Positions 9,087 to 62,941 of a stretch of 64,000 bases of DNA are shown one piece after another; the stretch's first letter is position 1, and the number at the start of each line of letters is the position of its first letter. This stretch comes from a bacterium. GTDB lineage: Bacteria; CAIWAD01. The notes under the pieces were generated by a model. It was not told where the DNA came from, ran no database searches, and saw nothing but the letters and a program-made list of their open reading frames with translations. The position numbers were made by a program, and so were the translations under genes. The DNA lies in assembly GCA_030429345.1 (NCBI GenBank), contig JAUIFJ010000013.1:13812-77811 (forward strand). Reading direction: 5' to 3'.

Positions 9087-9110
9087 GGGCTAGCAGGCAT
9101 GACCAAGAGA

Positions 9111-11498: not shown

Positions 11499-11517
11499 TA
11501 CATCACTCCATAAATGA

Positions 11518-21256: not shown

Positions 21257-21723
21257 AGTTCCGCCTGATCCTGCTCTTCGGCATGACCCTGCTGCAGGCC
21301 GCCATCGGGGACCTGTTGCGCCTGGGGCCCTGGGCGCCAGACCTGCAGCTGCTGGCGGTGCTCTGGCTGCTCAGCGACCGGCCTCCGGCGCAGGCGGCGC
21401 TGCTGGGTTTCGCCAGCGGCCTTCTGCTCGACCTGCTGGGCGTCGATCCCCTGGGGGCCGGAGCCCTGGCCTCCTGCGGCGCGGGCTTCTTCGGCTCGCT
21501 GCTGCTGGGACAGCCCCTGGGATTCCTGCTTCGCGCACTGCGCGCCCTGGCGCTGCTGGTGCCCCTGACGATCCTGCTGGGCCAGTTGCGCTGGTTCGGC
21601 CTGGAGACCGATCCGCTGGTCCAGGTCTTCGCCGTCTACCTTCCGGCAGGCCTGTATACCTGGCTACTCTATCTCCCCTTAAGCCTCGCCCCCCTCGGCG
21701 GCACCGAAGGAGGAGCGCGCTGA
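21253..21723 (+). CDS. mreD: Rod shape-determining protein MreD (polytopic membrane protein)
   Basis: ATGA overlap with mreC. Very hydrophobic 156-aa product in the canonical mreBCD position. Confidence 0.75.
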   Translation: MKFRLILLFGMTLLQAAIGDLLRLGPWAPDLQLLAVLWLLSDRPPAQAALLGFASGLLLDLLGVDPLGAGALASCGAGFFGSLLLGQPLGFLLRALRALALLVPLTILLGQLRWFGLETDPLVQVFAVYLPAGLYTWLLYLPLSLAPLGGTEGGAR

Positions 21724-29810: not shown

Positions 29811-29882
29811 TACCCCCGGATGGAATCGAACCATCGCACCCGGTTCCGGAGACCGGTGCTCTATCCACTGAGCTACGAGGGC
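29811..29882 (-). tRNA. tRNA-Arg (anticodon CCG)
   Basis: Hand-folded cloverleaf on the minus strand: GCCCTCG-TA-GCTC-AGTGGATA-GAGC-A-CCGGT-CTCCGGA-ACCGG-GTGC-GATGG-TTCGATT-CCATC-CGGGGGT-A. G1-U72 and U5-G68 are wobble pairs. CCA is not encoded. Confidence 0.85.
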
Positions 29883-47511: not shown

Positions 47512-49053
47512 ATGATTCACCGCCCCGCACTGGGTCTCCTGTTCCTGGGAACCTGCCTTGCCGGCCCGCTGCACGCCCTGCGCTGGCAGCCCGCCGCGCT
47601 GGATTTCGGCACGCGCAGCGTCGGTCAGCCGGCAACAGCCACCGTCTGGCTGGTCAATGACGGCAGCGAGGCCATGGACCTGCCCACCCTGAGCACGCAC
47701 CTGGAAGGCCTGGACTGGCAGATTCAGGGCGGCAGCCTTGCTGCCGGCGACAGCCTGGAACTGGCACTCGACTGGACCCCGTCGCAGAACATGCCCTATC
47801 TGGGCGCGCTGGCGGCAGAGGGCGATACCGGCGGTTGGGGGCTTTCCCTTTCCGGTTCCGGCGATCTGGCTGGCAGCACCTGGGACGGAAGCTATGGCCT
47901 GAGCGGAAACGCCCTGCGCGACCACCTGCGCACGGTGGTCCGCCAGCACAGCGAACTGGGCTATACCACGGCGCGCACGATCATGTTCGGCAGCCTGGAC
48001 AACGTGGGCGGCTGGGTCGAGAGCGTGTATACGGGTTTCCAGCTGCAGACCTCCGGCATTCCGGATCACACGGTGATGAACACCGAGCACACTTGGCCGC
48101 AAAGCCTTTTCAACGGCGCGGACAGCATTCGCACGGACCTGCATCACCTTTTCCCCTGCAAGAGCAACATCAACAGCAGCCGCGGAAACCTGCCTTTCGG
48201 CAACGTGGTCAACAGCTCGAGCGGCTTTCCCACGGGAGGAGCGGACCGCGGCACCGATGCCAACGGCACCACCGTCTTCGAGCCGCGCCTGTCTCACAAG
48301 GGGGACTGCGCGCGCTCCATGTTCTATGTCGCCCTGCACTACGGCAACCTGAGCGGCTTCCTGGGCTACCAGGAAGCCACCCTGCGGGACTGGTCGGAGC
48401 TGGACCCGGTCAGCCAGAAGGAGCGGGATCGCAACGACGGCATCGAAGGCGCCCAGGGCAACCGCAATCCCTTCGTCGATCACCCGGGCTTCCTCGATCG
48501 TTTGGCCACGCTCTCCGGCAGCAACGCCAACCTGCCGGCGGTGCAGGAACTGGCGGCCTTTCCCGCTGGGGGGCTGGACCTGGGCAGCGGCACGGAAGCC
48601 GAACTGGCAGGCGGCCTGCTGCTCTGCAACACGGGCAGCCAGGTGCTGCACTTCGGCGCGCCCCTGCTCAGCCCGGCGGTCTTCGTCCTGGAGGGCTTCC
48701 CGGCCAGCCTGGCGCCCGGCGAGAGCGCGCAGTGCGTGATCCGTCCCGCGGCGGGCGAGGAAGGCGGCCTGCTGGCCAGCCTGCAATACACCAGCGAGGC
48801 GGGATCGGCGAGCCATGTGATCCAGGCCCTGGTCGAAAGCGCGCAGCCCCAGCCGCTCGAACTGCAGATCCGCATCGAGAATTTCCAGGTGGTGCTCGAA
48901 TGGAACGAGGTTCCCGGCGCCGGCGGCTATCGCATCCAGAGCCGCCTGCCCGGCGAGGGCTGGGGCGACACGAGCTTCACGACGAATCTCGCGGCCCAGC
49001 TGATCTGGGACGAGTACGAGGAAATCCGCTTCTACCGCGTGCTGTCGGAATAG
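47512..49053 (+). CDS. Secreted endonuclease I (EndA/Vvn family) flanked by Ig-like domains and a C-terminal Fn3-like domain
   Basis: Signal peptide LGLLFLGTCLAGPLHA. Ig/ASH-like ALDFGTRSVGQPATATVWLVNDG. Endonuclease I motifs NTEHTWPQS, DLHHLFPCKSNINSSRGNLPFG, KGDCARSMFYVALHY and GNRNPFVDHPGF. The final 68 aa, LELQIRIENFQVVLEWNEVPGAGGYRI..RFYRVLSE, are the C-terminal domain. Confidence 0.85.
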   Translation: MIHRPALGLLFLGTCLAGPLHALRWQPAALDFGTRSVGQPATATVWLVNDGSEAMDLPTLSTHLEGLDWQIQGGSLAAGDSLELALDWTPSQNMPYLGALAAEGDTGGWGLSLSGSGDLAGSTWDGSYGLSGNALRDHLRTVVRQHSELGYTTARTIMFGSLDNVGGWVESVYTGFQLQTSGIPDHTVMNTEHTWPQSLFNGADSIRTDLHHLFPCKSNINSSRGNLPFGNVVNSSSGFPTGGADRGTDANGTTVFEPRLSHKGDCARSMFYVALHYGNLSGFLGYQEATLRDWSELDPVSQKERDRNDGIEGAQGNRNPFVDHPGFLDRLATLSGSNANLPAVQELAAFPAGGLDLGSGTEAELAGGLLLCNTGSQVLHFGAPLLSPAVFVLEGFPASLAPGESAQCVIRPAAGEEGGLLASLQYTSEAGSASHVIQALVESAQPQPLELQIRIENFQVVLEWNEVPGAGGYRIQSRLPGEGWGDTSFTTNLAAQLIWDEYEEIRFYRVLSE

Positions 49054-49121
49054 CGGCAGCGGGCGGTATCGATTTCGGAATCGAGCGAGGTCGAAGTCCC
49101 ACTTTGTACCTGGTAACCGCA

Positions 49122-49159
49122 ACGGCCCCCCGGCAAGATCTCGCCGGGGGGCCGTTTTC
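49122..49159. terminator. Hairpin terminator between the convergent endonuclease I gene and beta-helix gene 1
   Basis: 13-bp stem ACGGCCCCCCGGC / GCCGGGGGGCCGT followed by TTTT on the plus strand. The U-tract is weaker on the minus strand. Confidence 0.75.
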
Positions 49160-49177: not shown

Positions 49178-52100
49178 CTATTCGGTGACGGCTTCCACGT
49201 AGTAGTAGCTGTTGAAGGCCGGCGCGGGAGCGGCCCAGCTCTCGCCGACGAAGCTGCCGCTTTCGTCGATGGCGAATCCGGCCCAGGGGGCGGCGCTGCT
49301 GTAGACATTGTAATACAGGACGCCCGGCACCGTCGTCCATTCCAGCTCCACCAGGCCGTCGGCGACGGTGATCGAGGTGATCACCGGGCGGCAGGATTCC
49401 GTGTTCCAGGGGTCGAAGCTGACCACGCCGAGCGTGCCGTCCTCCTCGTCGTCCCGGATCCGCGCGTCGATGGCGGAGGCCGTGGTCGCGCCCCAGAAGT
49501 TGCCGCAGGCGGACACGTTCTGCGTGCTGCTGTTGTTCAGGGCGAAGCCGCCGTTGTCATGGATGCAGTTGCCGCCGTCGCCTGTCGGACAGGCGCCCAT
49601 GTCGAGGCCGCTGCCCGTGTGCAGCAGGCCGTCGCCCGCGTTGTGGCTGATGTGCGTGCCGCGCAGGCTGAGGCTGAAGCCGGCATGGTCGATGCCCACT
49701 CCCGCGCTGCGGCTGACTTCGCAGTTGTTGAGCGCCATCCAGTTGGACTGGTAGCAGCGCAGGGCCGCCTGTCCATCGCCGGCGTGGCGTAGACGCAGGC
49801 CGCTCAGGTTTCCGACGCCTTCATAGTGGGAATAGCCGTAGAAGTAGAGGCCGATCCAGTCTCCGGGTGATCCGGCGCTGGGGCCGTCGCCGTTGGTGTC
49901 CCCGTCCACATCGTCCGCGGCGAAGGAGCAGAAGGTGATCGGCTGGGTACCGCTGCCGTTGGCGATCAGCGTGCCGTAGGCCAGCAGCTGGGTCCCGGGC
50001 TGGGCCTTGAGGGTCTGCCGGCCATTCAGGCTCAGGCTGACATTGTCATTGATCGTGATCCCCCCCGTCATCACGAAGGGAAAGCCCGGGCCGCCCTGCT
50101 CCCAGCTGCGGTCGGAGCTCACGCTGCCGTTGAGGGCGAAACCGTTGAAGGCGTTGCCGCTTCCCGTGTTTCCGGAATAACTGGTCAGGGTGACACCTTC
50201 CAGCCTGGCGCCCCAGCTGCCGTTGTCCTCGAAATGGTTGTTGCTGAGCCAGGGCGAGGCGCCTGTACAGGAAACACCTTCGGAAAGGTTGTCGTGCCAC
50301 AGGCTGCTGGACAGGGAGGGACTGCATTCGGAGGCCAACAGCCCCGGCCCCGAGCTGTAGCCGACTTCGCAGGAGTCGATGGTCGCCCAGTTGCTCTGCG
50401 ACAGGCGGATGTTGGCGCTGCTCGAATCGGCGTCGCCGCCGTAATACACGCGGTTGTGCTCCAGATGAACCACGCCCTCGTAGAAGCTGTTGCCGTAGCC
50501 GTAGATGCCGCGCCAGTCGCCGGGCATCGGCTGCAGGGCGCCGTCGCCGTAGGTGTCCCCGCCCACGCTGTCGTCCTTCCAGGACGTGAGCACCGTCGGT
50601 TCTGCCGGAGTGGCCACGCTCTGCAGGCTGCCATAGGTCATGAAGCGTCCGCCTGCTTCTGCCTTGACCAGGGTGCCCGCCGGGAGGGACAGAGTCGTGT
50701 TGTCGCTGATCACCAGCTCCCCGGTGAGCAGGAAGGGGAAGGAGTGCTCCGGATGGGACCAGTTGCGGTTGGTGGTTACCGTGCCGTCCAGGCCGAAGCC
50801 GTTGACGGCATTGCCGCTGCCCGTGTTGCCGCTGTAGCTGGTGACGGTGACGCCTTCCAGCCGTACGCCGTATGCGCCGTTGTCGAGAAACCCGTTGTGC
50901 GTGATCCAGGGGGCGGAGGAGCCCGTGCAGTGCAGGCCATGGTCGCCGTTGTCGGCCAGTATGCTGTTGGACAGGGTGGGGCTGCACTCGAAGACCTGCA
51001 GGCCGGTGTCCAGGCTGTACTCGATGCGGCTGCTGTCGATGGTGGCCCAGTCCGAGCGGTAGAGCCGCAGCCCGCCTTCCTCTTCCAGGCCGCCGTAGCG
51101 CAGCAGGGTGTGATGCATGCTGATCACGCCCTCGTAGAAGCTGTGGCCATAGCCATAGACGCCCCGCCAGTCGCCGGGCGCGGGGGGAATCGGACCATCG
51201 CCCAGGGTGTCGCCGCCGTGGCTGTCGTCGCTGCTGCTGGTCAGCACGACGGGCTCGGCCAGGGTGCCATTGCAGAAGGTGCTTCCGTAGGACAGGATGC
51301 GCGCGTCCGGCATGCCCTTGACCAGGCTGCCTGCGGGCAGGGTCAGGCTGGTGTTGTCGCTGACGGTCAACTCGCCTGTCAGCAGGTAGGGGAAGCCTTG
51401 GTCGGGGTGCGAAAGTGTGCGGTTGGAGGTCAGGGTCCCGTTGAGCGCGAAGGCGTTGACCCCGTTTCCGGTGCCCTCATTGCCCGAGTAGGACGTGACG
51501 GTAATGGCGTCCAGGAAGACTCCGTGGGCGCCATTGTCGTTGAAGACATTGTCCGTCAGCGAGGGAGTGCCCGTGTTGGCGCGATAGCCGTCCAGCGCGT
51601 TGTCGCGCACGAGGTTCGCCGTCAGGCCGGGACTGCAGGCGTAGCTGTAGACGCCGTGGCCGGCATGGTGGCGGATCTCGCTGTCGTGAATGGTGGCCCA
51701 GTCGCAGCGGTCGAGAGTCAGGCCTTGTGCATAGGTTGAGTCTCCTCCGGCATAGCTCAGGGTCGACCAGCTCATCGAGAGCGCGCCCTCGTAGAAGCTG
51801 TGCCCGTAGCACCAGATGCCTGGCCAGTCGCCGGGCGACGCGCTGCCGCCGTCGTTGCCCGTGTCGCCGCCGACGCTGTCGTCGTGGATGCTGGTCAGGG
51901 TCACCGGGTAGCCGGCAAGGCCATTGAGGTAGAGGGTGCCGTAGACGCGCAGCAGGCCCTCGCTCATGCCCTTGAGCACACTCAGCGAATCGACGGTCAG
52001 GGTGGTGTTGTCGGATACGGCCACCTCGTCGGCGAGCACGATGGGGAAGAGGCTGGAAGCCGGCGTGGCCCAGGTCTGGTTGGCGCTGGTGCTGCCATTG

Positions 52101-52810
52101 ACCGCCAGGCCGTTGAGAGCGTTGCCGCTGCCCGTGTTGCCTGTATAAGAGCCTAGCGTGACCCCTTCAAGGCGCGCTCCCCAGCTGCCGTTGAAGAGAC
52201 AGGCGTTGTCGCGGAAGGTGGGAGCGCCGCCGTTGCAGTGAGCGCCGTTGCCCGCGTTCTGCTCGAAGACATTGTCCACCAGCCAGGGGCTGCAGCCCGT
52301 GCTGAACAAACCCGGCCCGGCACTGAAAGCGATCGAACAGTTGTCCAGGTAGATGTAGTTGCTCGAATTGGCGTGGAGCCCCGCGTTCTGGTTCGCGCCC
52401 GGGCCGCCGCCGTAGTGGATCTGGCAGAAATCCAGGTCCCCGGCTCCTTCATAGTGGGCGGCGCCGTAAAAATCGATGCCGTCCCAATCGCCGGGGGCCG
52501 GTGTGCCGTCGCTGCCGCTGATGCCTTCCCCGACGCTGTCGTCGTGGATCGAGGTGAAGACGATGGGCGTGTCCGCCGTCCCCGGCGCCAGCAGGGTGCC
52601 GAGGACCGTGAGGCGCACGCCGGGAGCGCACTTGAGCACCACGCCCGGTTCGAGGCTCAGGGTGGTGTTGTCGCCAATCGTCAGGTCGTCGGTGGCGTGG
52701 TAGGTGCCGGCGCTCCAGGTCTGGCCGCCGACCTCCCCGCTGACCTCGGTGCTCGCCTGCGCCAGGCCGGCCAATGCCGGAAGCAGCAGGCAGATCAAGC
52801 TCGCTCTCAC
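49178..52810 (-). CDS. Five-module beta-helix exoprotein, paralog 1 (1,210 aa)
   Basis: GTG start with AAGGGGA upstream. Signal peptide MRASLICLLLPALAGLAQAS. Five DDSxGGDTxxDG..PGDWxG modules, four GNTGSGNxxNG motifs, the NosD/CASH-like cap ACGNFWGATTASAIDARIRDD..VSFDPW, and a C-terminal domain ..LVELEWTTVPGVLYYNVYSS..YYYVEAVTE. Confidence 0.85.
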   Translation of the reverse strand: MRASLICLLLPALAGLAQASTEVSGEVGGQTWSAGTYHATDDLTIGDNTTLSLEPGVVLKCAPGVRLTVLGTLLAPGTADTPIVFTSIHDDSVGEGISGSDGTPAPGDWDGIDFYGAAHYEGAGDLDFCQIHYGGGPGANQNAGLHANSSNYIYLDNCSIAFSAGPGLFSTGCSPWLVDNVFEQNAGNGAHCNGGAPTFRDNACLFNGSWGARLEGVTLGSYTGNTGSGNALNGLAVNGSTSANQTWATPASSLFPIVLADEVAVSDNTTLTVDSLSVLKGMSEGLLRVYGTLYLNGLAGYPVTLTSIHDDSVGGDTGNDGGSASPGDWPGIWCYGHSFYEGALSMSWSTLSYAGGDSTYAQGLTLDRCDWATIHDSEIRHHAGHGVYSYACSPGLTANLVRDNALDGYRANTGTPSLTDNVFNDNGAHGVFLDAITVTSYSGNEGTGNGVNAFALNGTLTSNRTLSHPDQGFPYLLTGELTVSDNTSLTLPAGSLVKGMPDARILSYGSTFCNGTLAEPVVLTSSSDDSHGGDTLGDGPIPPAPGDWRGVYGYGHSFYEGVISMHHTLLRYGGLEEEGGLRLYRSDWATIDSSRIEYSLDTGLQVFECSPTLSNSILADNGDHGLHCTGSSAPWITHNGFLDNGAYGVRLEGVTVTSYSGNTGSGNAVNGFGLDGTVTTNRNWSHPEHSFPFLLTGELVISDNTTLSLPAGTLVKAEAGGRFMTYGSLQSVATPAEPTVLTSWKDDSVGGDTYGDGALQPMPGDWRGIYGYGNSFYEGVVHLEHNRVYYGGDADSSSANIRLSQSNWATIDSCEVGYSSGPGLLASECSPSLSSSLWHDNLSEGVSCTGASPWLSNNHFEDNGSWGARLEGVTLTSYSGNTGSGNAFNGFALNGSVSSDRSWEQGGPGFPFVMTGGITINDNVSLSLNGRQTLKAQPGTQLLAYGTLIANGSGTQPITFCSFAADDVDGDTNGDGPSAGSPGDWIGLYFYGYSHYEGVGNLSGLRLRHAGDGQAALRCYQSNWMALNNCEVSRSAGVGIDHAGFSLSLRGTHISHNAGDGLLHTGSGLDMGACPTGDGGNCIHDNGGFALNNSSTQNVSACGNFWGATTASAIDARIRDDEEDGTLGVVSFDPWNTESCRPVITSITVADGLVELEWTTVPGVLYYNVYSSAAPWAGFAIDESGSFVGESWAAPAPAFNSYYYVEAVTE

Positions 52811-52830
52811 TGTGGTCCCCTTTATGGCTG

Positions 52831-52860
52831 TAAAAATCCCCGCCCCTTCGTGGGGCGGGG
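52831..52860 (-). terminator. Canonical intrinsic terminator between paralog 2 and paralog 1, 21 nt upstream of the paralog 1 start
   Basis: On the minus strand: CCCCGCCCC-ACGAA-GGGGCGGGG followed by ATTTTTA (complement of 52831-52837). Confidence 0.7.
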
Positions 52861-52950
52861 AGTCTCAGTGTAGCCAATTGACAAAAATGTCTCCATACGT
52901 CAAATGCCTTAGTGGTCCCGGCGAAAAAAGTTCGGCCGGCAAGGTTGCGG

Positions 52951-55900
52951 CTACTCCAGCACGGCTTCGACCTTGTAGTAGGTATTGACGCCGGGGGTGC
53001 TTTCGCTCCAGCTGTTTCCGTCCAGCGCGCCGTCCAGGTCCACGCTGTAGCCGCCCCAGGGCATTGTGCTGCTGTAGACGATGTAGGAGCTGGCGCCCGC
53101 AACCGGCGTCCAGGTGAGCTGCACCTGGCCATCGGCGACGAGGATCTCGAAGATCACCGGCGCGCAGCTGGTGGCGTTCCAGGGGCTGAAATCGACGGCG
53201 CCCTTGGCGGCATCTTCCTCGTCATCGTAGATCAGGGCATCGACGCCGGCGGCGTCGAAAGCGCCCCAGTAGTTGCCGCAGGCCTCGAGAGGATCGGCGG
53301 TGTCATTGTAGAGCGCAAAGCCTCCGTTGTCCGAGATGCAGTTGCCGCCGGCCGCCCCGTCGCAGGCGCCCATTGCCAGGCTGCCGCTGTTGAAGCGGAT
53401 GCCGTCGCCGCCGTTGTCGCTGACGACGCTGCCGGTCAGGCTGAGGGAGCTGGCGCTGACCTCGATGCCATGACCCTGGTGATTGTCGACCAGGGAGGCC
53501 GTCACTTCGACCGCCGCGGCTGCCAGGACATCCAGGCCGGCCTGGCCGTCTCCGCCGTAGGAGATGCGGCAGTTTCTGAGGGTGGCCGCGCCCTCGTTGG
53601 TGCCGCCTCCGTCAATGACCAGGCCTTTCCAGTCGCCAGGCTGGCCGCTGCCGGGACCATCGGAATTGCTGTCCCCGTCCACGCTGTCGTCGGCGATGGA
53701 GGTGAAGGTGATCCGCTGGGCGCCCTCGCCGATGGCAAGGAGCGTGCCATCGATCGTCAGGCTCATGCCGGGCTGGCTCTTGAAGGTCGTTCCCGGCAGC
53801 AGCGTGAGCTGGCGGTTGTCGGGCACGATCACCTCCCCGGCCAGCACGAAGGGAAATCCGCTGCCGCTGGACAGGCTGTCGAGGAAGATGGTGCTGCCGC
53901 GCAGGCCGAAACCATTGACGCCGTTGCCGCTGCCGGTGTTGCCCAGATTGGTCGAGATGCGGCAGTCGTCGAAGAGGACGCCGTACTGGCTGTTGTTGGC
54001 GAAGTGGGCCTGGCGTAGATCCGGCTGGCTGGTTCCGGTTGCCAGGAGGCCGTGTTCCAGATTGTACTCGTAGCGGCCGCCGCGGATCTCGGGGCTGGCC
54101 GGCACACAGCGCAGGCCGCTGGCGCTGCAGGCGACCGCGCGGCAATCCGTGAGGAAAGCCTGGTCGGAGCCTTCGAGCTCGATGCCGCCGACCAGTCCCC
54201 CGCTGCCGCCGCCGTGATACAGATGCAGGCTTGCCAGGTCCACGGTTCCTTCATTGACCCCAATGCCATAGGCACGAATGCCAAGCCAGTCGCCAGGCAT
54301 GCCCGTGCTCGGGCCATCGGAGTAGGTATCACCGCCAAAGGCGTCTTCCCGCCAGCTGCAGAGGCGCACGGGATTCATCTCGTCGGCATTGCAGTTGAGG
54401 CGGCCGTATACGAGCAGCTGGCTGCCGTCCTCGCCCTTGATCAGCGTGCCCGGCGAAAGCTCCAGCACCCGGTTGTCGGCTACGATGGCCTCGCCCGTCA
54501 GGATGAGCGGAAAAGCGCTTTCGGTGGACCAGATGCGGTTTGCCTGCGCCGAGCCCTGGATCGCCAGGCCGTTGACGCCGTTGCCGCTGCCGCTGTTGCC
54601 GCTGTAGTCGGTGAAGTCCGCGTTCTCCAGGAGCGCCCCGTAGCCGGTGTTGCCGCTGAAGGTGTTGTCGTACAACTCGGGAGCTCCCTGGTTCGAGTAG
54701 AGGCCGCGATCGCCGTTGTCCTCGAAGACGCAGCCCTGGAAGACCGGGTCGGAGTTCAGGTTGGCGAAGCCATCCTGCAGGGCGCGGTCGAAGCGGCAGC
54801 TGTCGATCTGCGCCAGCAGGCTGATCGTCGAATAGACGCTGCCCGTGGAACCGCCGGCGCTGCCTCCGTAGCGGAACCAGGTGTGCGCCAGGTCCAGGGT
54901 GCCCTCGCTGGTGCCGATGCCGTCCGCCGCCACGCCGATCCAGTCGCCGCCCGCAGCGGGGGTGGCGTCGCCGGGCTTGCTGTCTCCGCCCCAGCTGTCG
55001 TCGCGCAGGGAGGTGAAGCGCACCGGGTTGCCGGACACGCCGTTGGAGACCAGCGCGCCGTATACGAAGAGTTCGCCGGCGCTCTCGCTCTTGAAGAGGC
55101 AGCCCGCTTCAAGAGTCAGCAGGCGGTTGTCGGGCACCAGCAGCTGCCCATTCAGGATGTAGGGAAACTCGCCGGCTCCGGGGCCGAAAGTGCGGCTGCC
55201 GTTGACCGTGCCGTCGACGGCCAGCCCGTTGTAGAGATTGCCGCTGCCGGCATTGCCGCTCATGTCCTGCAGGTTGCAGTCCAGCAGGCGGCCGCCATAG
55301 GCGCCGTTGTCCTCGAAGTGGCAGTTGTTGACATGGGGCGTCGCCGAGTCGACGAAGAGCCCGTCGCCCGCATTGGCATCGAAGGTGCAGCTGTCCAGGT
55401 CCAGCTCGCAGCTCTCCGCCTGCAGGCCATGGGCGAAGGCGTGATCCACCCGGCAGTTTTCCAGTTCCAGGACGGCGGTGTTCTGGGCATGCAGCCCTCC
55501 GTGATCCACCCCGCCGGCGTAGGCGACCCGCAGGTGAGACAGCAGGCCACGGCCCTCGGAAGTGCCCACGCCGTCGAAGCGCAGCCCGGACCAGTCGCCC
55601 GGCTGGGCGCTGCTGGCGGCACCGTCGCCATTGGTGTCGCCGCCGACGGCGTCGTCGGCCAGCGAGGTGAAGACGATGGGGTCATCCGCGGTGCCATAGG
55701 CGAAGAGCGTTCCGTAGATCCAGAGCAGGCCGCCCGGCGCGCCTTTCAGGGTGCTGCCCTGAACCACATGGAAGCCGATGTTGTCGTTGGCGCGCAGGGT
55801 ATCGGTCAGCACCAGCGGAAACTGGGCGCCGGGCGTTCCCAGGCTGTCGCCGGTGCTCATGCTGCCGTGGATGCCCAGGCCGTTGATGCCGTTGCCGCTT

Positions 55901-56583
55901 CCCGTGTTGCCCAGGGTGTTGTTGAGCGTGACATCGTCCAGGCGGCCGCCGTAGCTGCCGTTGTTGTCGAACTGGCAGCCCCGGACCTCGGTCGAGCCCC
56001 CCAGGCACTGCAGGCCGTGTTCCGCGTTGTCGCTGAAGAAGCTTTCCACCAGTTCGATCGTACCTGCATCTGTCAACAGGCCGGTGCCGGCGCAGTCGCG
56101 GATCTCGCTGTGCAGCAGATCCACCGTATTCGGATTCAGGCAGTACACGCCCGCGTTCTGCGTCGCCGCCGTACCGCCGGCCCAGGCGAGCCCCGCGTAG
56201 CGGAAGTCGATCCGCCCTTCCTGGGTGCCGCTGCCGTCGGTGGCAATGCCCGCCCAGTTGCCGGGCGCGGGAACACCGCTGGAGCCGGCGATCACCTCGC
56301 CCACGCTATCGTCGTGCATCGAGGTCAGCGAGACGCCCACGCTGTCGCTGCCGAAAGCGACCAGGCTGCCGAAGACTTCCAGCAGGACGCCGTCGGCGAA
56401 CTTGAGCACGGCCCCGTCCTGCAGGGTCAGCGAGGTATTGTCGTTGACCCAGGAATCGGAGCTCACCAGCCAGGTGCCGGCGGAAAGCGTGCTGCTTCCC
56501 AGGTGGCCGCTGATCTCGGTGTAGGCCGCCAGGCTGTGTGTCATGCCCAGCAGCAGGAAAACGTGAATCCAAAGGGTTCGCAT
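52951..56583 (-). CDS. Five-module beta-helix exoprotein, paralog 2 (1,210 aa)
   Basis: ATG start with AGGAGA upstream. Signal peptide MRTLWIHVFLLLGMTHSLAA. Same five-module order as paralog 1. Cap ACGNYWGAFDAAGVDALIYDD..VDFSPW and C-terminal domain ..QVQLTWTPVAGASSYIVYSS..YYKVEAVLE. Confidence 0.85.
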   Translation of the reverse strand: MRTLWIHVFLLLGMTHSLAAYTEISGHLGSSTLSAGTWLVSSDSWVNDNTSLTLQDGAVLKFADGVLLEVFGSLVAFGSDSVGVSLTSMHDDSVGEVIAGSSGVPAPGNWAGIATDGSGTQEGRIDFRYAGLAWAGGTAATQNAGVYCLNPNTVDLLHSEIRDCAGTGLLTDAGTIELVESFFSDNAEHGLQCLGGSTEVRGCQFDNNGSYGGRLDDVTLNNTLGNTGSGNGINGLGIHGSMSTGDSLGTPGAQFPLVLTDTLRANDNIGFHVVQGSTLKGAPGGLLWIYGTLFAYGTADDPIVFTSLADDAVGGDTNGDGAASSAQPGDWSGLRFDGVGTSEGRGLLSHLRVAYAGGVDHGGLHAQNTAVLELENCRVDHAFAHGLQAESCELDLDSCTFDANAGDGLFVDSATPHVNNCHFEDNGAYGGRLLDCNLQDMSGNAGSGNLYNGLAVDGTVNGSRTFGPGAGEFPYILNGQLLVPDNRLLTLEAGCLFKSESAGELFVYGALVSNGVSGNPVRFTSLRDDSWGGDSKPGDATPAAGGDWIGVAADGIGTSEGTLDLAHTWFRYGGSAGGSTGSVYSTISLLAQIDSCRFDRALQDGFANLNSDPVFQGCVFEDNGDRGLYSNQGAPELYDNTFSGNTGYGALLENADFTDYSGNSGSGNGVNGLAIQGSAQANRIWSTESAFPLILTGEAIVADNRVLELSPGTLIKGEDGSQLLVYGRLNCNADEMNPVRLCSWREDAFGGDTYSDGPSTGMPGDWLGIRAYGIGVNEGTVDLASLHLYHGGGSGGLVGGIELEGSDQAFLTDCRAVACSASGLRCVPASPEIRGGRYEYNLEHGLLATGTSQPDLRQAHFANNSQYGVLFDDCRISTNLGNTGSGNGVNGFGLRGSTIFLDSLSSGSGFPFVLAGEVIVPDNRQLTLLPGTTFKSQPGMSLTIDGTLLAIGEGAQRITFTSIADDSVDGDSNSDGPGSGQPGDWKGLVIDGGGTNEGAATLRNCRISYGGDGQAGLDVLAAAAVEVTASLVDNHQGHGIEVSASSLSLTGSVVSDNGGDGIRFNSGSLAMGACDGAAGGNCISDNGGFALYNDTADPLEACGNYWGAFDAAGVDALIYDDEEDAAKGAVDFSPWNATSCAPVIFEILVADGQVQLTWTPVAGASSYIVYSSTMPWGGYSVDLDGALDGNSWSESTPGVNTYYKVEAVLE

Positions 56584-56694
56584 GCGAAGGTCTCCTGTGT
56601 GTCTTTCGGAGGATGGTTTAATAGCGCGGGCCCCTGTCGCCTTGCAGACCGCGCCAGTCCTGACGAGCGCTGCAGACGGGCGGAAGCCCCAAGG

Positions 56695-56722
56695 AACAGC
56701 CCGACTCGAGAGACGGGCTGTT
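56695..56722. other. Hairpin in the paralog 3 - paralog 2 spacer (weak terminator or processing site)
   Basis: AACAGCCCG (56695-56703) / CGGGCTGTT (56714-56722) with a 10-nt loop. There is no good U-tract on the minus (coding) strand. Confidence 0.3.
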
Positions 56723-56745
56723 CTGTTTCAATGGGTCGTGTTTTC

Positions 56746-59700
56746 CTATTCGGGTACCGTTGCCACCACCACGTAGCTGGCCCGCGGGCCGGGGGCGGGG
56801 GCGCTCCAGCTGTTGCCGTCGTAGCTGCCGCTCAGGTCGATCGTGTAGCCGCTCCAGGGCTCCGTGCTGCTGTAGACGGTGTAGTCGATTGCCTCCGGCA
56901 GCAGAGACCAGTTCAGCTCCACGATGCCGTTGACGACCGTGATCTCCAGCTCGAGCACCGGCACCTGCGCCGTGCATTCGGAGTTGTAGGTCGCCGCGTT
57001 GACCAGGCCGTAGGAGGGCTGGTCCACCTGGTGGTTGATCGCCGCCTCGATGGCGGCCGGATCCGCGCTGCCCCAGTAGTTGCCGCAGGCCTCGATGTCC
57101 TGGTTGGAGGTGTTGTTGAGGGCGTAGCCGCCGTTGTCGTAGAGGCAGTTGTTGCCTCCCGCTTCCGAGCAGGATCCCAGGGCGAGGCTGCCCTGGTTGC
57201 ACTGGATGCCGTCATCCGTATTGTCGCGGAAGATGCTTCCCTTGGCGCTTGCGCTGCTGTAGAGGGTGTAGAGGCCGTCGCCCAGGTTGTCCTCGACCCG
57301 GCAATACTCCAGGTGGAGAGACTCCGTATACTCTCCGCGGATGCCGCTTTCCTGCCCGCCGCCGCCGCCATGGGCCACTTCCGTCCACTGCAGGTTGCCG
57401 CTGCCTTCGTTGCCGCTGTAGCCGTGGAAGAGCAGGCCGTTCCAGTAGCCTGCCGTGCCGCTGCTGACGCCGTCGTGGGCCGTATCCCCGTCCACGCTGT
57501 CGTCATCGAGGGAGGTGAAGGTCACACGGCGGATCGCGTTGCCGTTGGAATCCAGTGTGCCGTTGGTGCGCAACTGCGCCCCGTTCATGCCCTTGATCAC
57601 GGTGCCGGCCTGCAGCGAGAGCGTCACGTTGTCGTTGACCGTCGTCTGGCCGGTCAGAACGACCGGGAAGCCGGGTTCCGTACTCCAGCCGGAGTTGACC
57701 TGCACGGTGCCCTTGATGCCGAAACCATCGGTTCCGTTGCCGCTGCCCGTATTGCCGGAAAGGTCCGCCAGCGAACTGTTGTCCATGTAGACGCCGAAGG
57801 CGCCGTTGTCCTCGAAGACGCTGTCGTATACCGGCACGCGGGAGGTGGAGTTGCAGTAGATGCCGTGACGCAGGTTGCTCCGGAAGGCGCTGCGCTCGAC
57901 GAGAGGCGAAGAGGCCGTGGTGGCCACGCCGTCCCGGGCGCAGTCCTGCACCCGGCTGTCGCGCAGATGCGCCCCGTCGCTGTAGTCGATCTGGATGCCG
58001 GCCGTGTTGGCCGCGTTGGCGCCGCCGTGATACAGCTCGCCCCAGGCCATGTCGAGGATGCCTTCGTTGCCCGAATAGCCGTAGACGTAGAGGCCCTTCC
58101 AGTCGCCGGGCTGCCCCAGGCTGGCCCCGTCGCCGTTGGTGTCGCCGCCGATGCCGTCCTCGCGCCAGGAGGCGAAGCGCACGGGCTGGCTTTCCGTGCC
58201 CAGGATGTTCAGCGTGCCGTAGACGCTGAGCTGGCTCTCGTTCTCGCACTTGAACAGCGTCCCCGCGGCCAGGTCGAGCACCGTGTTGTCGTTGACACTG
58301 ACCGTGCCGTGAAGAATGAAGGGGAAGGAGGCGGACACGCCGCTCCAGGTCTGTGATACATAGGTGTTGCCGTTCAGGGCCAGGCCGTTGATGCCGTTGC
58401 CGCTGCCGTCGTTGCCCGAGAAGTCGGTCAGCGCGCTGGAGGTGACCCAGGCGCCGTACTGCCCGTTGGCGTCGAACTGGTTGTCGACCAGGAAAGGGGT
58501 TCCGCTGGAGCAGTGGAAGCCGTTCAGGCCGTTGGCGTTCAGCAGGCAACGGCTGAGGCTGCTGACGCTCTGGTTGGTGCGGACTCCGTGCATCGAGCCG
58601 TATTCCACCACGCAGTCGTCCAGGCTGACCGTCTCGCAGTAGGCCAGGTAGACTGTGGCCTCGCCGCCGGCCACATTGCCGCCGTAGCGGAAGCGAGTGT
58701 AGTCCAGGTCGACGATGCCTTCGTTGCCCGAGTAGCCGTAGGCGTAGAGGCCTTTCCAGTCCCCCGGCGCAGGGGCATCCGATTCCATGGTGTAGGTGTC
58801 GCCGGCAAGGGCATCGTCGCGGTAAGAGCTGAAGACGACGGGGGAGCCGGAGCCGCCCGGAGCCGTCAAGGTGCCGTATACATGGATTTCGCCGTTGTTC
58901 TCGCCCTTGAAGACGCAGCCTGCATTGAGGGTCAGGCTGGCATTGTCGTTGACAGTCAGCAGCCCCGGCAGCAGGTAGGGAAAGGCCGGGTCCCCCTGGC
59001 TCCAGCTGAGCGCTCCGGCGACGGCGCCCTGCACGGCGAAACCGTTGATGCCGTTGCCGCTTCCCGTGTTGCCGCTGTAGTCCGTCATGGTGCAGGTGCT
59101 GAAACGGCTGCCGTAGCGCGTGTTGTCCTCGAAGGAGCAGTCGGTCACGAAAGGCGTGGAACTGGAGGCATTCAGGCCGTCGCGTCCGTTGGCGCTGAAG
59201 GAGCACTGCTGCAGGTCGGGCATGGTCGAAAAGCTGTAGAGGCCGTCGTGGGCGCTGTGCCCGATGCGGCAGTTGCTCAGCGTCTGGTAGTCCGCATACT
59301 GGAGAATGACCGAGGCCCGGCTGCCCGCCTGGCCGCCGTAATACACGGAGGCCCAGGTCCAGGTCCCCGCGCCCTCGTTGCCCGAATAGCCGTAGGTCTC
59401 GATGCCCAGCCAGTCGCCGGGCGAGCCCGTGCTGGCGCCGTCGCTGTTGGTGTCGCCGCCGACGCCGTCATCGGCGATCGAGGTCAGGATCACCTCGGCG
59501 GATCCCGGTCCGCCGTCCATGTCCAGCGTGCCATAGACATAGAGCAGCCCACTGTTCTGGCTCTTGAAGGTGCAGCCCGCTTCCAGGCGCAGGTGGGCAT
59601 TGTCGTTGACCGTCAACTGGCCGCTCAGGATGAAGGGAAAGTTCGGGCCAACGGTCGAAAGGGAATCGAAACCGGTCACCTGCCCCTGCAGGCGCATGCC

Positions 59701-60411
59701 GTTCAGAGTGTTGGCCGACCCCGTATTGCCGCCGTAGCTGCCGATATCGCTGGTGTAGATGTTCGCGCCGTAGCCCAGGTTGTTGTGGAATTCGTTGTCG
59801 CGCACCGAAGGAGCGCCGTTGGCACAGCGGAAGCCGTCGCCCTGGTTGTGCCGGAAGAGGCAATGGTCGAGAAGGTCGTTGGAGAAGTTGGTGCTGAGCC
59901 CCGGACCGGCGCAGTGGTCGATGCTGCTGTAGCGGAACCAGGCGAAATCGCTGTAGGCGCAGTAGATGCCCGCGTTGTCCGAGTTGCCCGCGCCGCCGGC
60001 GTAGGAGAAGTCCGTGTAGTCGAAGTCGACCAGGCCCTCGGCCACCGAGTAGCCGTAGGCGTTGATGCCGTCCCAGTCGCCGGGCTGCGGATTCCCCGTC
60101 GATTCGCTGATCGCCTCGCCCACGCTGTCGTTGTTGCGCGAAGTCAAGGTCACACGGTTGCCCTCCACGCCGTCGGCGTCGAAGGTGCCGTTCACGGTTA
60201 CAAGGACGCCGGGTGCGAACTTCATCACGACGCCGGGCTCCAGGGTTACCTGCTGGTTGTCCGGAATGGTGACATTCCCGGTGACATGGTAGGTGCCGGC
60301 GCTCAAGGTCATGGTGTTCCAGGTGCCGCCGGGCAGTGTCGTGTAGGCTGCCGCGTTCAGGGGCAGGGCAAAGGCCAGTCCGAGCCCGACCAGTCGGGGT
60401 GCGAGTCGCAT
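56746..60411 (-). CDS. Five-module beta-helix exoprotein, paralog 3 (1,221 aa)
   Basis: Start taken at the ATG at 60411 (AGGAGAACCC upstream), giving signal peptide MRLAPRLVGLGLAFALPLNAAA. The 47 extra codons in the track ORF are non-signal. Same module order as the other paralogs. Cap ACGNYWGSADPAAIEAAINHQ and C-terminal domain ..IVELNWSLLPEAIDYTVYSS..YVVVATVPE. Confidence 0.85.
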   Translation of the reverse strand: MRLAPRLVGLGLAFALPLNAAAYTTLPGGTWNTMTLSAGTYHVTGNVTIPDNQQVTLEPGVVMKFAPGVLVTVNGTFDADGVEGNRVTLTSRNNDSVGEAISESTGNPQPGDWDGINAYGYSVAEGLVDFDYTDFSYAGGAGNSDNAGIYCAYSDFAWFRYSSIDHCAGPGLSTNFSNDLLDHCLFRHNQGDGFRCANGAPSVRDNEFHNNLGYGANIYTSDIGSYGGNTGSANTLNGMRLQGQVTGFDSLSTVGPNFPFILSGQLTVNDNAHLRLEAGCTFKSQNSGLLYVYGTLDMDGGPGSAEVILTSIADDGVGGDTNSDGASTGSPGDWLGIETYGYSGNEGAGTWTWASVYYGGQAGSRASVILQYADYQTLSNCRIGHSAHDGLYSFSTMPDLQQCSFSANGRDGLNASSSTPFVTDCSFEDNTRYGSRFSTCTMTDYSGNTGSGNGINGFAVQGAVAGALSWSQGDPAFPYLLPGLLTVNDNASLTLNAGCVFKGENNGEIHVYGTLTAPGGSGSPVVFSSYRDDALAGDTYTMESDAPAPGDWKGLYAYGYSGNEGIVDLDYTRFRYGGNVAGGEATVYLAYCETVSLDDCVVEYGSMHGVRTNQSVSSLSRCLLNANGLNGFHCSSGTPFLVDNQFDANGQYGAWVTSSALTDFSGNDGSGNGINGLALNGNTYVSQTWSGVSASFPFILHGTVSVNDNTVLDLAAGTLFKCENESQLSVYGTLNILGTESQPVRFASWREDGIGGDTNGDGASLGQPGDWKGLYVYGYSGNEGILDMAWGELYHGGANAANTAGIQIDYSDGAHLRDSRVQDCARDGVATTASSPLVERSAFRSNLRHGIYCNSTSRVPVYDSVFEDNGAFGVYMDNSSLADLSGNTGSGNGTDGFGIKGTVQVNSGWSTEPGFPVVLTGQTTVNDNVTLSLQAGTVIKGMNGAQLRTNGTLDSNGNAIRRVTFTSLDDDSVDGDTAHDGVSSGTAGYWNGLLFHGYSGNEGSGNLQWTEVAHGGGGGQESGIRGEYTESLHLEYCRVEDNLGDGLYTLYSSASAKGSIFRDNTDDGIQCNQGSLALGSCSEAGGNNCLYDNGGYALNNTSNQDIEACGNYWGSADPAAIEAAINHQVDQPSYGLVNAATYNSECTAQVPVLELEITVVNGIVELNWSLLPEAIDYTVYSSTEPWSGYTIDLSGSYDGNSWSAPAPGPRASYVVVATVPE

Positions 60412-60460: not shown

Positions 60461-60475
60461 GCAAAGATTGTGCCA
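60461..60475 (-). promoter_or_regulatory. Sigma-54 (RpoN) promoter upstream of beta-helix paralog 3
   Basis: The minus strand reads CCATGGCACAATCTTTGCTCAAG, i.e. TGGCAC-N5-TTGCT, a full match to the -24 GG / -12 GC core with correct spacing. The -12 element lies 50 nt upstream of the ATG at 60411. Confidence 0.75.
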
Positions 60476-60709
60476 TGGATGTCGGCGCTAAGTCTCGAAG
60501 AATCGTTGTTATGATTGAGAGTTCTTCTACCCGAGTGACCGATCCTGCACAAAGTGCCGAAAGCTGACTACTAGAACGGGACACGCGCTTGGGGGACGGT
60601 CCGGAAGGGCATCGCGCGGGCGGTCCGCTCGCAGGGGCGGACTCAATCGCTATATTTCGTGTTTGTCTCACGAAGCCATCTGTTTCCAAGGAAAGACGAA
60701 GCCCGCCTC

Positions 60710-62941
60710 ATGTCCCACGCACCCGAACCCGCGGTCACTCCCGAGCTGGCCCAGGAGCACGGCCTGAGCCCTGCCGAGTTCCAGATGATCCAGGACTATC
60801 TGGGCCGCATGCCCAGCTGGACCGAGCTGGGCATCTACAGCGTCATGTGGTCCGAACACTGCAGCTACAAGAATTCCATCGCCCAGCTGAAGACCCTGCC
60901 CCGCGACGGAGGCAGGCTGCTGGTGGCCGCCGGGGAGGAGAACGCCGGCCTGGTCGACATCGGCGAAGGGCTGGCGGTGGCCTTCAAGATCGAGAGCCAC
61001 AACCACCCCAGCGCCGTGGAACCCTACCAGGGGGCGGCCACAGGTGTCGGCGGCATCATGCGCGACATCTTCACCATGGGCGCGCGGCCGATCTGCAGCC
61101 TGAACAGCCTGCGTTTCCCCTCGCTGTCTCACGAAAGCACGCGCTGGCTGGTCGACGGCATCGTGCGCGGCATCGGTGACTACGGCAACTGCCTCGGCAT
61201 TCCCACGGTGGGCGGCGAGGCGGCCTTCGAGGCCTGCTACAACGGCAATCCGCTGGTCAACGCCATGACCGTCGGCATCGTGAAACACGAGCACACGGCC
61301 AGCGCCACGGCGGAAGGGACGGGCAATCCGGTCTTCCTGATGGGCGCTTCCACCGGCCGCGACGGCATTCACGGAGCGACCTTCGCCAGCGAAGAGCTCT
61401 CCGAGGAAAGCGAGGAGAAGCGCTCGAATGTCCAGGTGGGCGATCCCTTCATGGAGAAGCTGCTGCTGGAAGCGACCCTCGAACTGATCGGCACCGGGGA
61501 CCTGGTGGGCATCCAGGACATGGGCGCTGCCGGGATTACCTGCAGCTGCAGCGAGATGAGCGCCAAGGGGGAGTCCGGCATCCGCATCCACATCGAGAAG
61601 GTCCCCCAGCGCGAACCCCGCATGTCGGCCTACGAGGTCTGCCTGAGCGAGAGCCAGGAGCGCATGCTGGTGGTGATGAAGAAGGGCACCGAAGCGAGCA
61701 TTCGCCGGGTCTGCGAGAAATGGGACATCCACTGCGAGCAGATCGGCGAGGTCACCGACACGGGCCTCTTCGAGGTGTACCACAACGGCGAGCTGAAAAG
61801 CGCGATTCCCGCCGACAGCCTGGTGCTGGGCGGCGGCGCGCCGGTCTACATCCGCGAATCCCGCGAACCGGCGTATTACAGAGAGCTGAAGACTGCGGCT
61901 CTTGACTTCGCGGATGTGGAGGACCCGGCGGCGGAGCTGAAGCGCCTGGTCGGCCACCCCAACATCGTCTCGCGGCGCTGGATCTACCGGCAGTACGATC
62001 ACATGATCGGCGCCGCCACCACCTTGCGCCCCGGCGGGGACGCGGCCGTGGTGCGCGTACTCGGCTCGCACAAGAGCCTGGCCGTCTGCACGGACTGCAA
62101 CAGCCGGCTGGTCTACCTGGACCCGCGCGCCGGCGCCCGCGCCGCCGTCGCCGAGGCGGCCCGCAACATCGCCTGCAGCGGAGCACGGCCCCTGGCGATC
62201 ACCAATTGCCTCAATTTCGGCAACCCCATGGACCCGGAAATCTACTGGCAGTTCCAGGAGGCCATCGCCGGCATGGGCGAGGCCTGCCGCGCCTTCGACA
62301 CGCCGGTGACCGGCGGCAATGTCAGCTTCTACAACGAAAGCCCGGAAAGCGCCGTCCACCCGACTCCGGTAATCGGCATGGTCGGCCTGCTGGAACACGA
62401 TCGCCCCGTGCCCAGCGCCTTCCGCCGGGCCGGCGACACGATCTGGCTGCTGGGAATCTCCCGGAGCGAGCTGGGCGGCAGCCTCTACGCCGAGCACCGC
62501 CTGGGCCGCCTGGCCGGCGCCGTGCCCGATCCGGACCTGGAAGCCGAAGGGCGCCTGCAGGACTTCCTGGTCGAAGCGGCGGAGAAGAGCCTGCTGCAGA
62601 GCGCGCACGACATCAGCGAAGGCGGGCTGGCGGTCTGCCTGGCCGAGGCCTGCTTCTGTGATCCGGATACCCGCGTCGGCGCCCGCGTGACCCTGCCGGG
62701 CGAAGGCCGCCTCGACGCCCGCCTCTTCGCCGAGACTCCCGGGCAAGTGCTGCTCTCGGCCGACCCGGCGCATGCGGAGACGCTGCAGGCCCTGGCGGTG
62801 AAACACGAGCTCCCGCTGGTGGCCCTTGGCGTGACCGGCGGAGAGAGTCTTCGCATCACGGATGTGCTCGACCTGCCCCTGGCGGGCCTGGCCGAGACCT
62901 GGTGGGGCAGCCTGGACCACTGGATGGACGGCGAACGGTGA
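60710..62941 (+). CDS. purL: Phosphoribosylformylglycinamidine synthase subunit PurL
   Basis: [79 protein letters not shown]. Confidence 0.95.

Follow-up and report, generated by a model that had tools for sequence, protein, structure and literature searches.

The locus considered here raises the question of what a bacterium might do with three adjacent genes, A, B and C, each of which encodes a very large exported protein built from five copies of the same beta-helix module. The genes lie on the minus strand between positions 49178 and 60411 of a 64,000-nucleotide stretch of contig JAUIFJ010000013.1, the whole of which is referred to below as the window, and on sequence comparison the organism belongs to 'Candidatus Delongbacteria', its PurL protein, encoded next to gene C, being 79% and 73% identical to those of metagenome-assembled genomes (MAGs) from that group. 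The answer we favour, with a probability that we would put at roughly 45%, is that the three proteins leave the cytoplasm by the Sec route and serve, without catalytic activity, as beta-helix rods of the envelope or cell surface, stabilised by Ca2+ and produced conditionally from a sigma-54 promoter.

Gene A (49178-52810) has a GTG start codon and gene B (52951-56583) an ATG, and both encode proteins of 1,210 aa; gene C (56746-60411), again with an ATG, encodes one of 1,221 aa. An AGGAG-type ribosome-binding site lies 5-8 nt 5' of each, and the G+C content at third codon positions (GC3; 0.87-0.88) is similar to that of the adjacent genes. For gene C the open frame continues upstream to a TTG at 60552, and the ATG at 60411 is the sensible start because it has its own ribosome-binding site (AGGAGA) and because the sigma-54 element described below falls inside the TTG extension. 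In each protein a signal peptide (residues 1-19 in A, 1-19 or 1-20 in B, 1-22 in C) is followed by five modules and a tail resembling a fibronectin type III (FN3) domain. An earlier note on this DNA had proposed just such a set of three consecutive genes with one architecture, and the open reading frames (ORFs) agree with it, as do pairwise BLASTP comparisons, which give 40.5-42.1% identity across ~1,210 columns (E = 0); A, B and C are old, diverged tandem paralogues of one gene. The signal peptides, which the note had also seen, appear on inspection to be of the signal peptidase I type, ending AQA/S, LAA/Y and AAA/Y (the stroke marking the cleavage site); across residues 4-18 their Kyte-Doolittle hydropathy averages 1.5-1.9.

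The modules are right-handed beta-helices of ~218 aa, a length that recurs in the DNA of the locus as a repeat period of 654-657 nt. A hidden Markov model (HMM) of the module finds five full copies in each protein, as the note had counted, and Pfam likewise finds five stretches of PF13229 (Beta_helix) in each, with E-values from 4e-31 to 7e-38 and scores of 108-130 bits against a gathering threshold of 25.9. In C the modules occupy residues 23-264 (59620-60345), 265-483 (58963-59619), 484-702 (58306-58962), 703-921 (57649-58305) and 922-1147 (56971-57648), the last of these including a Cys-rich CGNYWG end cap; in B they occupy residues 20-261 (55801-56526), 262-479 (55147-55800), 480-697 (54493-55146), 698-916 (53836-54492) and 917-1138 (53170-53835, with a CGNYWG cap), the HMM spans themselves being 32-267, 253-477, 471-698, 687-914 and 906-1136; and in A they occupy residues 20-261 (52028-52753), 262-479 (51374-52027), 480-697 (50720-51373), 698-916 (50063-50719) and 917-1138 (49397-50062, where the cap reads CGNFWG). 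The cap had been described as a separate, NosD/CASH-like unit, but an alignment of all 15 modules places its ACGN(Y/F)WG motif opposite the SGNTGSGN end of modules 1-4, and the cap is therefore better regarded as module 5 ending in modified form. With 23 Cys residues apiece, four of them conserved around the cap, the proteins suit an oxidising compartment.

The module as such is not new, being a member of a widespread and uncharacterised beta-helix family. Among the candidates scored, 170 proteins match it at E <= 1e-5, those listed being annotated as Beta_helix and often also as Beta_helix_4 (PF28492, which the precomputed annotation lists for A and B, without C), while a motif scan of GTDB species representatives found 303 related loci across many phyla, including Cloacimonadota, Ignavibacteriota, Bacteroidota, Chloroflexota, Planctomycetota, Verrucomicrobiota and others; the best match in that scan is 35% identical, and no close relative was found there. 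The distant homologues have the same module in arrays of 4-7 tandem copies, each of ~200-230 aa, following a signal peptide, and share with A, B and C the hallmark K...FTS..DD..GGDTNxDG...PGDW (defined by the form K...FTS..DD..GGDT.xDG...PGDW, the family takes in A, B and C, each with five full modules). They differ in what follows the array, which elsewhere in the family is mostly a type IX secretion system (T9SS) sorting domain (PF18962), a FlgD-Ig domain (PF13860) or a dockerin, whereas the Delongbacteria proteins end in the FN3-like tail. The Delongbacteria members are also unlike the rest of the family in having exactly five modules (four in one relative, P0010), a syntenic locus of variable copy number and a sigma-54 promoter.

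Conservation within the module is uneven. In 324 modules from 105 distant proteins the hallmark residues are conserved at 75-98%, with K31 at 94%, D61 at 87%, D62 at 84% and W81 at 97%, and G42, F-T-S at 56-58, G66-D67, D71, P76 and G79 are conserved as well; the consensus of the acidic loop over the same modules is DDxxGGDTNGDG (D67 79%, N69 69%, D71 75%, G72 70%). All of these positions fall within the N-terminal half of the module, and the PbH1 coils, which house the active sites in beta-helix enzymes, are poorly conserved. Among the 15 modules of A, B and C themselves 20 columns are invariant, including DN, K31, S58, D62, G-x-W-x-G and E94-G95. The proteins are very acidic, with pI values of 4.15-4.36 and 123-144 Asp plus Glu against 39-47 Lys plus Arg, and they are nearly free of lysine, each having only 6-9 Lys, five of which are the invariant Lys of the modules.

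As to the three-dimensional structure, an AlphaFold2 model of mature B (1,191 aa, 21 homologues) has a mean predicted local distance difference test score (pLDDT) of 90.1 and a predicted template-modelling score (pTM) of 0.71, and consists almost wholly of short, regularly spaced strands; module 2 of B modelled alone gives 92.1 and 0.90, respectively. So high a predicted score over 1,191 residues argues that the modules form a rigid and ordered whole and are not strung loosely like beads. The earlier note had recognised no catalytic motif and no characterised family, and the searches made here bear this out, since Pfam, NCBIfam, the PDB and Foldseek gave generic beta-helix matches only. A PDB sequence search with the whole protein was empty, a PDB search with the module profile gave nothing below E = 0.03 (the best match, to a tailspike at E = 0.036, lying in the PbH1 half), and a PHROGs search was likewise empty. 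Foldseek against the PDB, with full-length and module models, returned right-handed beta-helices of a generic kind, none at E <= 1e-3 and the best at E = 1.7e-3, while with the module model the best match in BFVD had E = 9e-4; overall the matches have E-values of ~1e-3 or worse, TM scores of at most 0.47 and 9-16% identity. A literature search covering Delongbacteria, T9SS beta-helix repeat proteins, DxDxDG beta-helices and Cloacimonadota sorting domains found neither the triplet proteins nor their tail described.

The note had further claimed that the locus has its own sigma-54 promoter, and here the comparative evidence is good. A perfect TGGCAC-N5-TTGC (-24/-12) element, TGGCACAATCTTTGC, lies at 60461-60475 on the minus strand, 50 nt 5' of the gene C ATG, in a 247-bp intergenic region and divergent from purL. 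The core GGCAC-N5-TTGC recurs, correctly oriented, ~90-135 nt 5' of the first beta-helix gene in three other Delongbacteria loci (L080, L081 and L087), and again ~135 nt 5' of the start of the four-module relative in L083, which has a different genomic context. It is the retention of this core in five Delongbacteria loci whose flanking sequences differ that makes a promoter the natural reading. Perfect matches to TGGCAC-N5-TTGC are expected 0.2 times in 64 kb and were observed twice; the second, at 53735-53749 (-), lies inside gene B, 925 nt 5' of the gene A start, and is probably due to chance. No convincing sigma-54 or sigma-70 promoter was found before B or A, a candidate before B (TGGCGC-GGTC-TGCA) being rejected for its wrong spacing. 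Terminator-like hairpins occur between B and A (52837-52861, minus strand; 10 pairs, 9 of them G-C, then TTTTT) and, more weakly, after gene C (~56697-56720), and a strong inverted repeat beyond gene A (49121-49156; 14 pairs, 12 of them G-C) is likely to be a bidirectional terminator. The gene for sigma-54 itself, rpoN, is not within the window. The only sigma-54 activator in the window is an NtrC-type protein with Response_reg and Sigma54_activat domains (E = 2e-61) at 28453-29799 (+), directly preceded by a large histidine kinase of 1,041 aa (25258-28383, +); the pair lies 30 kb from the beta-helix promoter, and its presence indicates that the organism uses sigma-54, not that the pair is linked to the locus.

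The C-terminal tail needs separate consideration, as what becomes of the proteins after export may depend on it. It comprises 74 aa in C (56749-56970, minus strand, ending ...VVVATVPE) and 72 aa in both B (52954-53169, minus strand, ending ...YYKVEAVLE) and A (49181-49396, minus strand, ending ...YYYVEAVTE). The convergent neighbour of gene A, at 47512-49053 (+), encodes a secreted endonuclease I, in which a possible choice-of-anchor-D-like Ig domain (NCBIfam choice_anch_D at 28.5 bits, below the cut-off of 45) and an Endonuclease_1 domain (Pfam, E = 1e-32) are followed by a tail at 48841-49050 (+). That this is the same kind of C-terminal domain, as the note had said, is clear both from an alignment of the last ~72 residues of all four proteins, in which A and the nuclease are 23% identical, and from the match of the nuclease to the tail HMM (E = 1e-18). 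The tail has no match in Pfam or NCBIfam at E <= 10. A search of 1.84 billion representative proteins with a tail profile gave 9,455 matches, of which the best are giant multi-repeat proteins with Pfam fn3 (PF00041) repeats, and the tail therefore seems to be a divergent FN3-type domain. It differs from PF00041 in giving no direct Pfam match, in having six strands (by DSSP on the model of B) where the FN3 sandwich has seven, and in terminating just after the F-strand motif Y-x-V-x-A (as in ...YYKVEAVLE or ...RFYRVLSE).

Two readings of the tail then have to be weighed. One is that it is no more than an ordinary FN3 domain at the end of the chain, a spacer or binding module that takes no part in sorting and that the nuclease shares through coincidental reuse; this may quite well be so, although we would stop short of calling it probable, and it has in its favour the very large number of profile matches, the best of which carry the domain internally in giant multi-FN3 proteins, as well as Holophagales loci where the match is N-terminal. 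The other, which we advance only tentatively and on grounds of sequence distribution, is that in Delongbacteria and Cloacimonadota the tail may be a C-terminal signal for export or anchoring that has so far escaped classification and works alongside the canonical T9SS type-A domains while being distinct from them, in which case the triplet would be cargo of a new sorting route. What speaks for the sorting role, and against a mere spacer, is first that each of the 16 tails found in the Delongbacteria loci and in the Cloacimonadota locus L007 has its end 0-3 residues from the stop codon, while further metagenome tails with a complete ORF (L088-L103, from a scan with three Cloacimonadota tails) end 0-35 residues from the stop, mostly 0-2; second that the tail stops after the F-strand motif; and third that it is carried by unrelated secreted proteins, namely S8, M14 and gingipain-like C25 peptidases, GLUG, LamG/InhA-MAM and LVIVD proteins, beta-helix proteins and endonuclease I, whose genes are often side by side. 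Such a distribution is that expected of a sorting or anchoring tag. (A word-indexed search with the tail profile gave only fragments of 64-128 aa or stand-alone domains, from Cloacimonadota, and so did not bear on the passengers.) If the tail does act in this way, the manner of its ending, at ...(F/Y)Y(R/K)V.A..-COOH and apparently without a seventh strand, would leave an exposed F-strand edge that could dock by strand complementation on a partner at the outer membrane or surface.

There is a parallel with the T9SS type-A sorting domains (PF18962/TIGR04183), which are also beta-sandwiches of ~70-80 aa and likewise stand at the very C-terminus of secreted enzymes of many kinds in an FCB-group organism; a gingipain-like C25 peptidase is among the tail passengers. 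However, the tail has no sequence or profile similarity to these domains, carries an FN3 signature and has six model strands in place of the 3+4 seven-strand sandwich that PMC11285876 describes for them. Against its being a known T9SS sorting domain stand the lack of any Pfam or NCBIfam match at E <= 10 and the result of hhalign, which gave a probability of 0.1% for the tail profile against canonical T9SS sorting domains of the same genome and phylum; three such canonical domains occur in the window itself, in the genes at 2-604, 9111-11498 and 11518-16929.

Three observations concerning tails may be recorded here for their own sake. FN3-tailed genes are clustered in the Cloacimonadota-like contigs L091 (where there are three consecutively), L093, L095, L098, L102 and L007; in L001, L002, L065, L089 and L092 the tail is followed by a short basic extension rich in Lys and Arg; and in L081 a small ORF of 83-120 aa on the opposite strand between the beta-helix copies (5335-5694, +) consists almost entirely of an FN3-like tail.

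How, then, might these proteins work? On the reading that we prefer, the five right-handed parallel beta-helix modules of ~218 aa would stack into an elongated, largely rigid body, in each module of which the invariant Lys, the acidic FTS-x2-DD-x2-GGDT(N)xDG loop and PGDW would mark a structural Ca2+ site of the DxDxDG type. Such a site would let each module fold or become rigid once outside the cytoplasm, while the ~70-aa FN3-like tail would act as a C-terminal export or anchoring tag. Transcription of the first gene from a sigma-54 promoter would make expression conditional on an enhancer-binding protein, and the rods might serve as adhesins, matrix fibres or multivalent glycan binders whose diversity would arise by duplication, rapid divergence and intragenic homogenisation. 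A non-catalytic role is preferred because in each module the conserved residues make up a single compact acidic motif and do not line a groove, and because five equivalent sites per chain (4-7 across the family) suit a structural or binding role better than they suit five active sites; the extreme acidity, as seen in other Ca2+-dependent exoproteins, points the same way. A surface location is preferred because homologous arrays in other phyla carry surface-anchoring ends, and a surface rod would also suit a locus that is fast-evolving and variable in copy number. Precedents for long, rigid, non-catalytic surface rods exist among the Foldseek matches in the beta-helical adhesins Ag43 (4kh3/7koh), pertactin (1dab) and Fap2 (9qe7), from which A, B and C nevertheless differ in that Pfam finds no autotransporter barrel or TPS domain in them, in that their coils are PbH1-like and in that they end in an FN3-like sandwich.

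It must be remembered that several points weigh against this interpretation. Function has been assigned by exclusion and analogy, no characterised homologue having been found. The idea that the DDSxGGDTNGDG loops bind calcium, which was already present in the earlier note, gains from the conservation of an acidic loop throughout the family, as would fit a metal site, but it suffers from the fact that the strict motif is present in only 5 of the 15 modules (a relaxed D-x3-D-G is found in 10) and is wholly missing from module 1; a calcium loop of the DxDxDG type has the form D-x-[DN]-x-D-G, with a further acidic ligand downstream. The invariant Lys beside the putative Ca2+ site resembles the arrangement in PL6/PL9-type lyases, and the top Foldseek matches are to glycan-active enzymes. 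Export by Sec is all that is evident, and the note's term exoprotein goes beyond it; in a diderm a Sec signal alone implies a periplasmic location, and the tail corresponds to no known sorting domain even though the genome has canonical T9SS ones. Finally, the sigma-54 motif precedes the first gene only, and there is a terminator-like hairpin after B, which makes expression of B and A from the same promoter no more than possible.

Some of these points lead directly to the main rival, which we consider rather unlikely, namely that A, B and C are secreted glycan-active enzymes of a CASH or pectate-lyase-like kind (lyases, hydrolases or epimerases), in which the Lys and the acidic loop would form a site for beta-elimination or a similar reaction and the paralogues would be directed at different polysaccharides. 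What keeps it alive is the identity of the fold neighbours and the pairing of a Lys with a possible Ca2+ site. The nearest structures are PL6 alginate lyases, the K1 capsule lyase, GH87, the AlgG and AlgE epimerases and tailspike depolymerases, the same company as tailspike 3 and the K1 lyase, which head the PDB matches of the module profile in its PbH1 half, and PL6/PL9 lyases use a catalytic Lys base together with a Ca2+ site in the PB1 groove. With PL6, the K1-capsule lyases and the tailspikes (7dmk, 7w1c, 6w4q, 6f7d) the triplet shares a three-sheet beta-helix with PbH1-like coils, and these are the best structural and profile matches of all, yet the resemblance is one of fold only (E >= 1.7e-3 and 9-16% identity, with no family match), and the five-module plan has no counterpart among them. 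That beta-helix exoenzymes can be modular, dependent on Ca2+ and duplicated in tandem is shown by AlgE1-7, the mannuronan C-5 epimerases of Azotobacter vinelandii (2pyg, 5lw3), which are secreted and, like A, B and C, modular and encoded by tandem paralogues. However, AlgE appears among the Foldseek matches only at ranks 27 and 45 (E ~0.05-0.08, TM ~0.1-0.25), and the triplet proteins lack both the RTX R-modules of AlgE and the DPH[DE] of its catalytic motif, which in the A-module reads YG(F/I)DPH(D/E). Nor does any CAZy-type family model in Pfam or NCBIfam match A, B or C, the conserved residues lie in the N-terminal sub-domain, away from the PbH1 groove, and are repeated five times per chain, which is atypical of active sites, and no polysaccharide-utilisation genes flank the locus.

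A further alternative, which seems to us improbable, is that the proteins remain in the periplasm as envelope scaffolds or chaperone-like beta-helices similar to NosD (7o0y; PF05048, TIGR04247), rather than reaching the surface. Their Sec signal peptides come without a lipobox and without a recognised outer-membrane sorting domain, and the Pfam NosD model does score above its gathering threshold (42-62 bits against 23.6), over ~90 residues per stretch in all three. This match represents clan-level PbH1 similarity only: the more specific TIGR04247 (NosD_copper_fam) reaches just 20.4 bits for C against a cut-off of 300, a sub-threshold match that is the only one NCBIfam gives for any of the three, A and B having none, and Pfam scans of the neighbouring genes show no nosZ or nosFY nearby. 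The periplasmic alternative is also hard to square with the T9SS, dockerin and FlgD-Ig ends of homologous arrays elsewhere, or with the occurrence of the same tail on such typical secreted hydrolases as C25, S8 and M14 peptidases and endonuclease I, and a rigid body of ~1,190 residues (pTM 0.71) would be large for a periplasmic scaffold.

That the three copies might be an assembly artefact of a single gene, for which nothing speaks except the repeated architecture and which the note had named as a way in which its reading could fail, can be dismissed: the proteins are only 40-42% identical, the DNA shows just patchy similarity (65-70%) with no direct repeat above ~83% identity over ~100 nt and hence no long identical tracts, the intergenic regions differ from one another, and two copies are present at the corresponding locus of an independent MAG. 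Copies as diverged as these do not collapse in assembly, and their number stands without recourse to long reads; the absence of long identical tracts equally rules out recent gene conversion among A, B and C.

Comparison with related genomes gives some idea of how the triplet may have arisen. The gene order in the window is ftsY, rimO, a GWxTD protein, an S66 peptidase, tpiA, secG, a TPR protein, a CMD-like protein, endonuclease I, the beta-helix genes and purL, with a DUF748 protein also among the neighbours. In the JGI contig L080 this whole order is kept with a single beta-helix gene, which is frameshifted; in L081, from MAG GCA_020634015.1, there are endonuclease I, two beta-helix genes and purL; and in the more distant L082 (PurL 71%) no beta-helix gene stands beside purL, FG-GAP proteins with T9SS sorting domains being found there instead. 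The copy number between endonuclease I and purL is thus 1, 2, 3 or 0. In a neighbour-joining tree of full-length proteins A, B and C form a clade separate from the two proteins of L081 (encoded at 1456-5109 and 5925-9581), with 100% bootstrap support, and duplication would therefore have been independent in at least two lineages; homogenisation of tandem copies is the alternative. The last 30 residues of the two L081 proteins, at the 3' ends of their genes, are identical, which suggests local gene conversion. While PurL of the window is 79% identical to that of GCA_020634015.1, the beta-helix proteins are only ~40% identical, and from these comparisons the latter diverge much faster than PurL.

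The history of the modules within the genes is less straightforward than the note had supposed. It had held that module i of one paralogue resembles module i of the others, and in the module tree this is true of modules 1 and 5, which group by position, and more weakly of modules 3 and 4 of B and C; modules 2, 3 and 4 of A, however, group with one another (94% bootstrap), A3 and A4 being 57% identical, and modules 2-4 of the orthologues P0002 and P0005 also cluster (100%), so that modules 2-4 appear to evolve in concert within a gene. Position in the array thus gives only partial backing to the further proposal that the five-fold expansion came before the triplication. That the five-module plan is ancestral is better argued from the relatives, all seven of which have five modules bounded at nearly the same positions. 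The four-module relative P0010 is located elsewhere in its genome, on L083, a Delongbacteria contig labelled CAIWAD01, where its gene follows one for a 615-aa protein (5790-7637, +) that has faint matches to multihaem cytochromes of the MtrC/MtrF kind.

The location of P0010 also bears on the suggestion of a dedicated system that would include the nuclease, which is not upheld: endonuclease I and the beta-helix genes are adjacent as part of a syntenic stretch conserved among housekeeping genes (tpiA, secG, purL), they are transcribed towards each other and separated by a terminator-like hairpin, and the relative in L083 does without this context. On the other side of the locus purL diverges from gene C, its ORF extending over 60659-62941 and its true start probably lying near 60710. 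A conserved AATC(C/G)CTATAT(T/G), read towards purL, occurs in the intergenic region between purL and the beta-helix genes of four loci (window ~60644-60656, L087 ~1003-1016, L081 ~9868-9881, L080 ~8245-8258); lying about 55 nt 5' of the point where purL probably starts, it is likely to be the -10/-7 box of the purL promoter.

Elsewhere in the window, the region 9111-16929 (-) is an island of low GC content (0.49-0.51 against ~0.65 elsewhere) with two large genes, whose products of 795 aa and 1,803 aa match Beta_helix weakly and carry T9SS sorting domains of the canonical type (Por_Secre_tail, E = 1e-5 and 3e-11); the island may be surface-protein cargo gained by horizontal transfer. The 3' gene end at 2-604 (+) likewise encodes a canonical T9SS type-A sorting domain (Por_Secre_tail, E = 3e-6), and the organism therefore has T9SS-type cargo alongside its FN3-tailed proteins. 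A tRNA gene at 29811-29882 (-) is the sole Rfam match, and with no rRNA to go by the organism was placed from PurL. Three ORFs at 686-2359, 5408-7561 and 21253-21723 (all +; 557, 717 and 156 aa) are well supported by GC3 and lack any Pfam match at E <= 1e-5; directly downstream of the first, with a 4-nt overlap, comes a gene for a TonB-dependent receptor (2356-5130).

The wider interest of the triplet is that it is a further instance of a very large family in uncultivated bacteria that has been catalogued and yet is functionally blank, and to which it adds a clear-cut prototype of five modules whose structure is modelled with confidence. The residues that are invariant across the family in each module (one Lys, an acidic DxNxDG-like loop and one Trp) are ready handles for mutagenesis, and a handle of another kind is the natural range of copy numbers (0, 1, 2 and 3) found at a single syntenic locus, while the conserved sigma-54 promoter points to conditional expression. 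Should the tail prove to be a sorting or anchoring signal, this would bring peptidases, a nuclease and beta-helix proteins of two candidate phyla together as a new secreted set, and would imply a matching recognition component.

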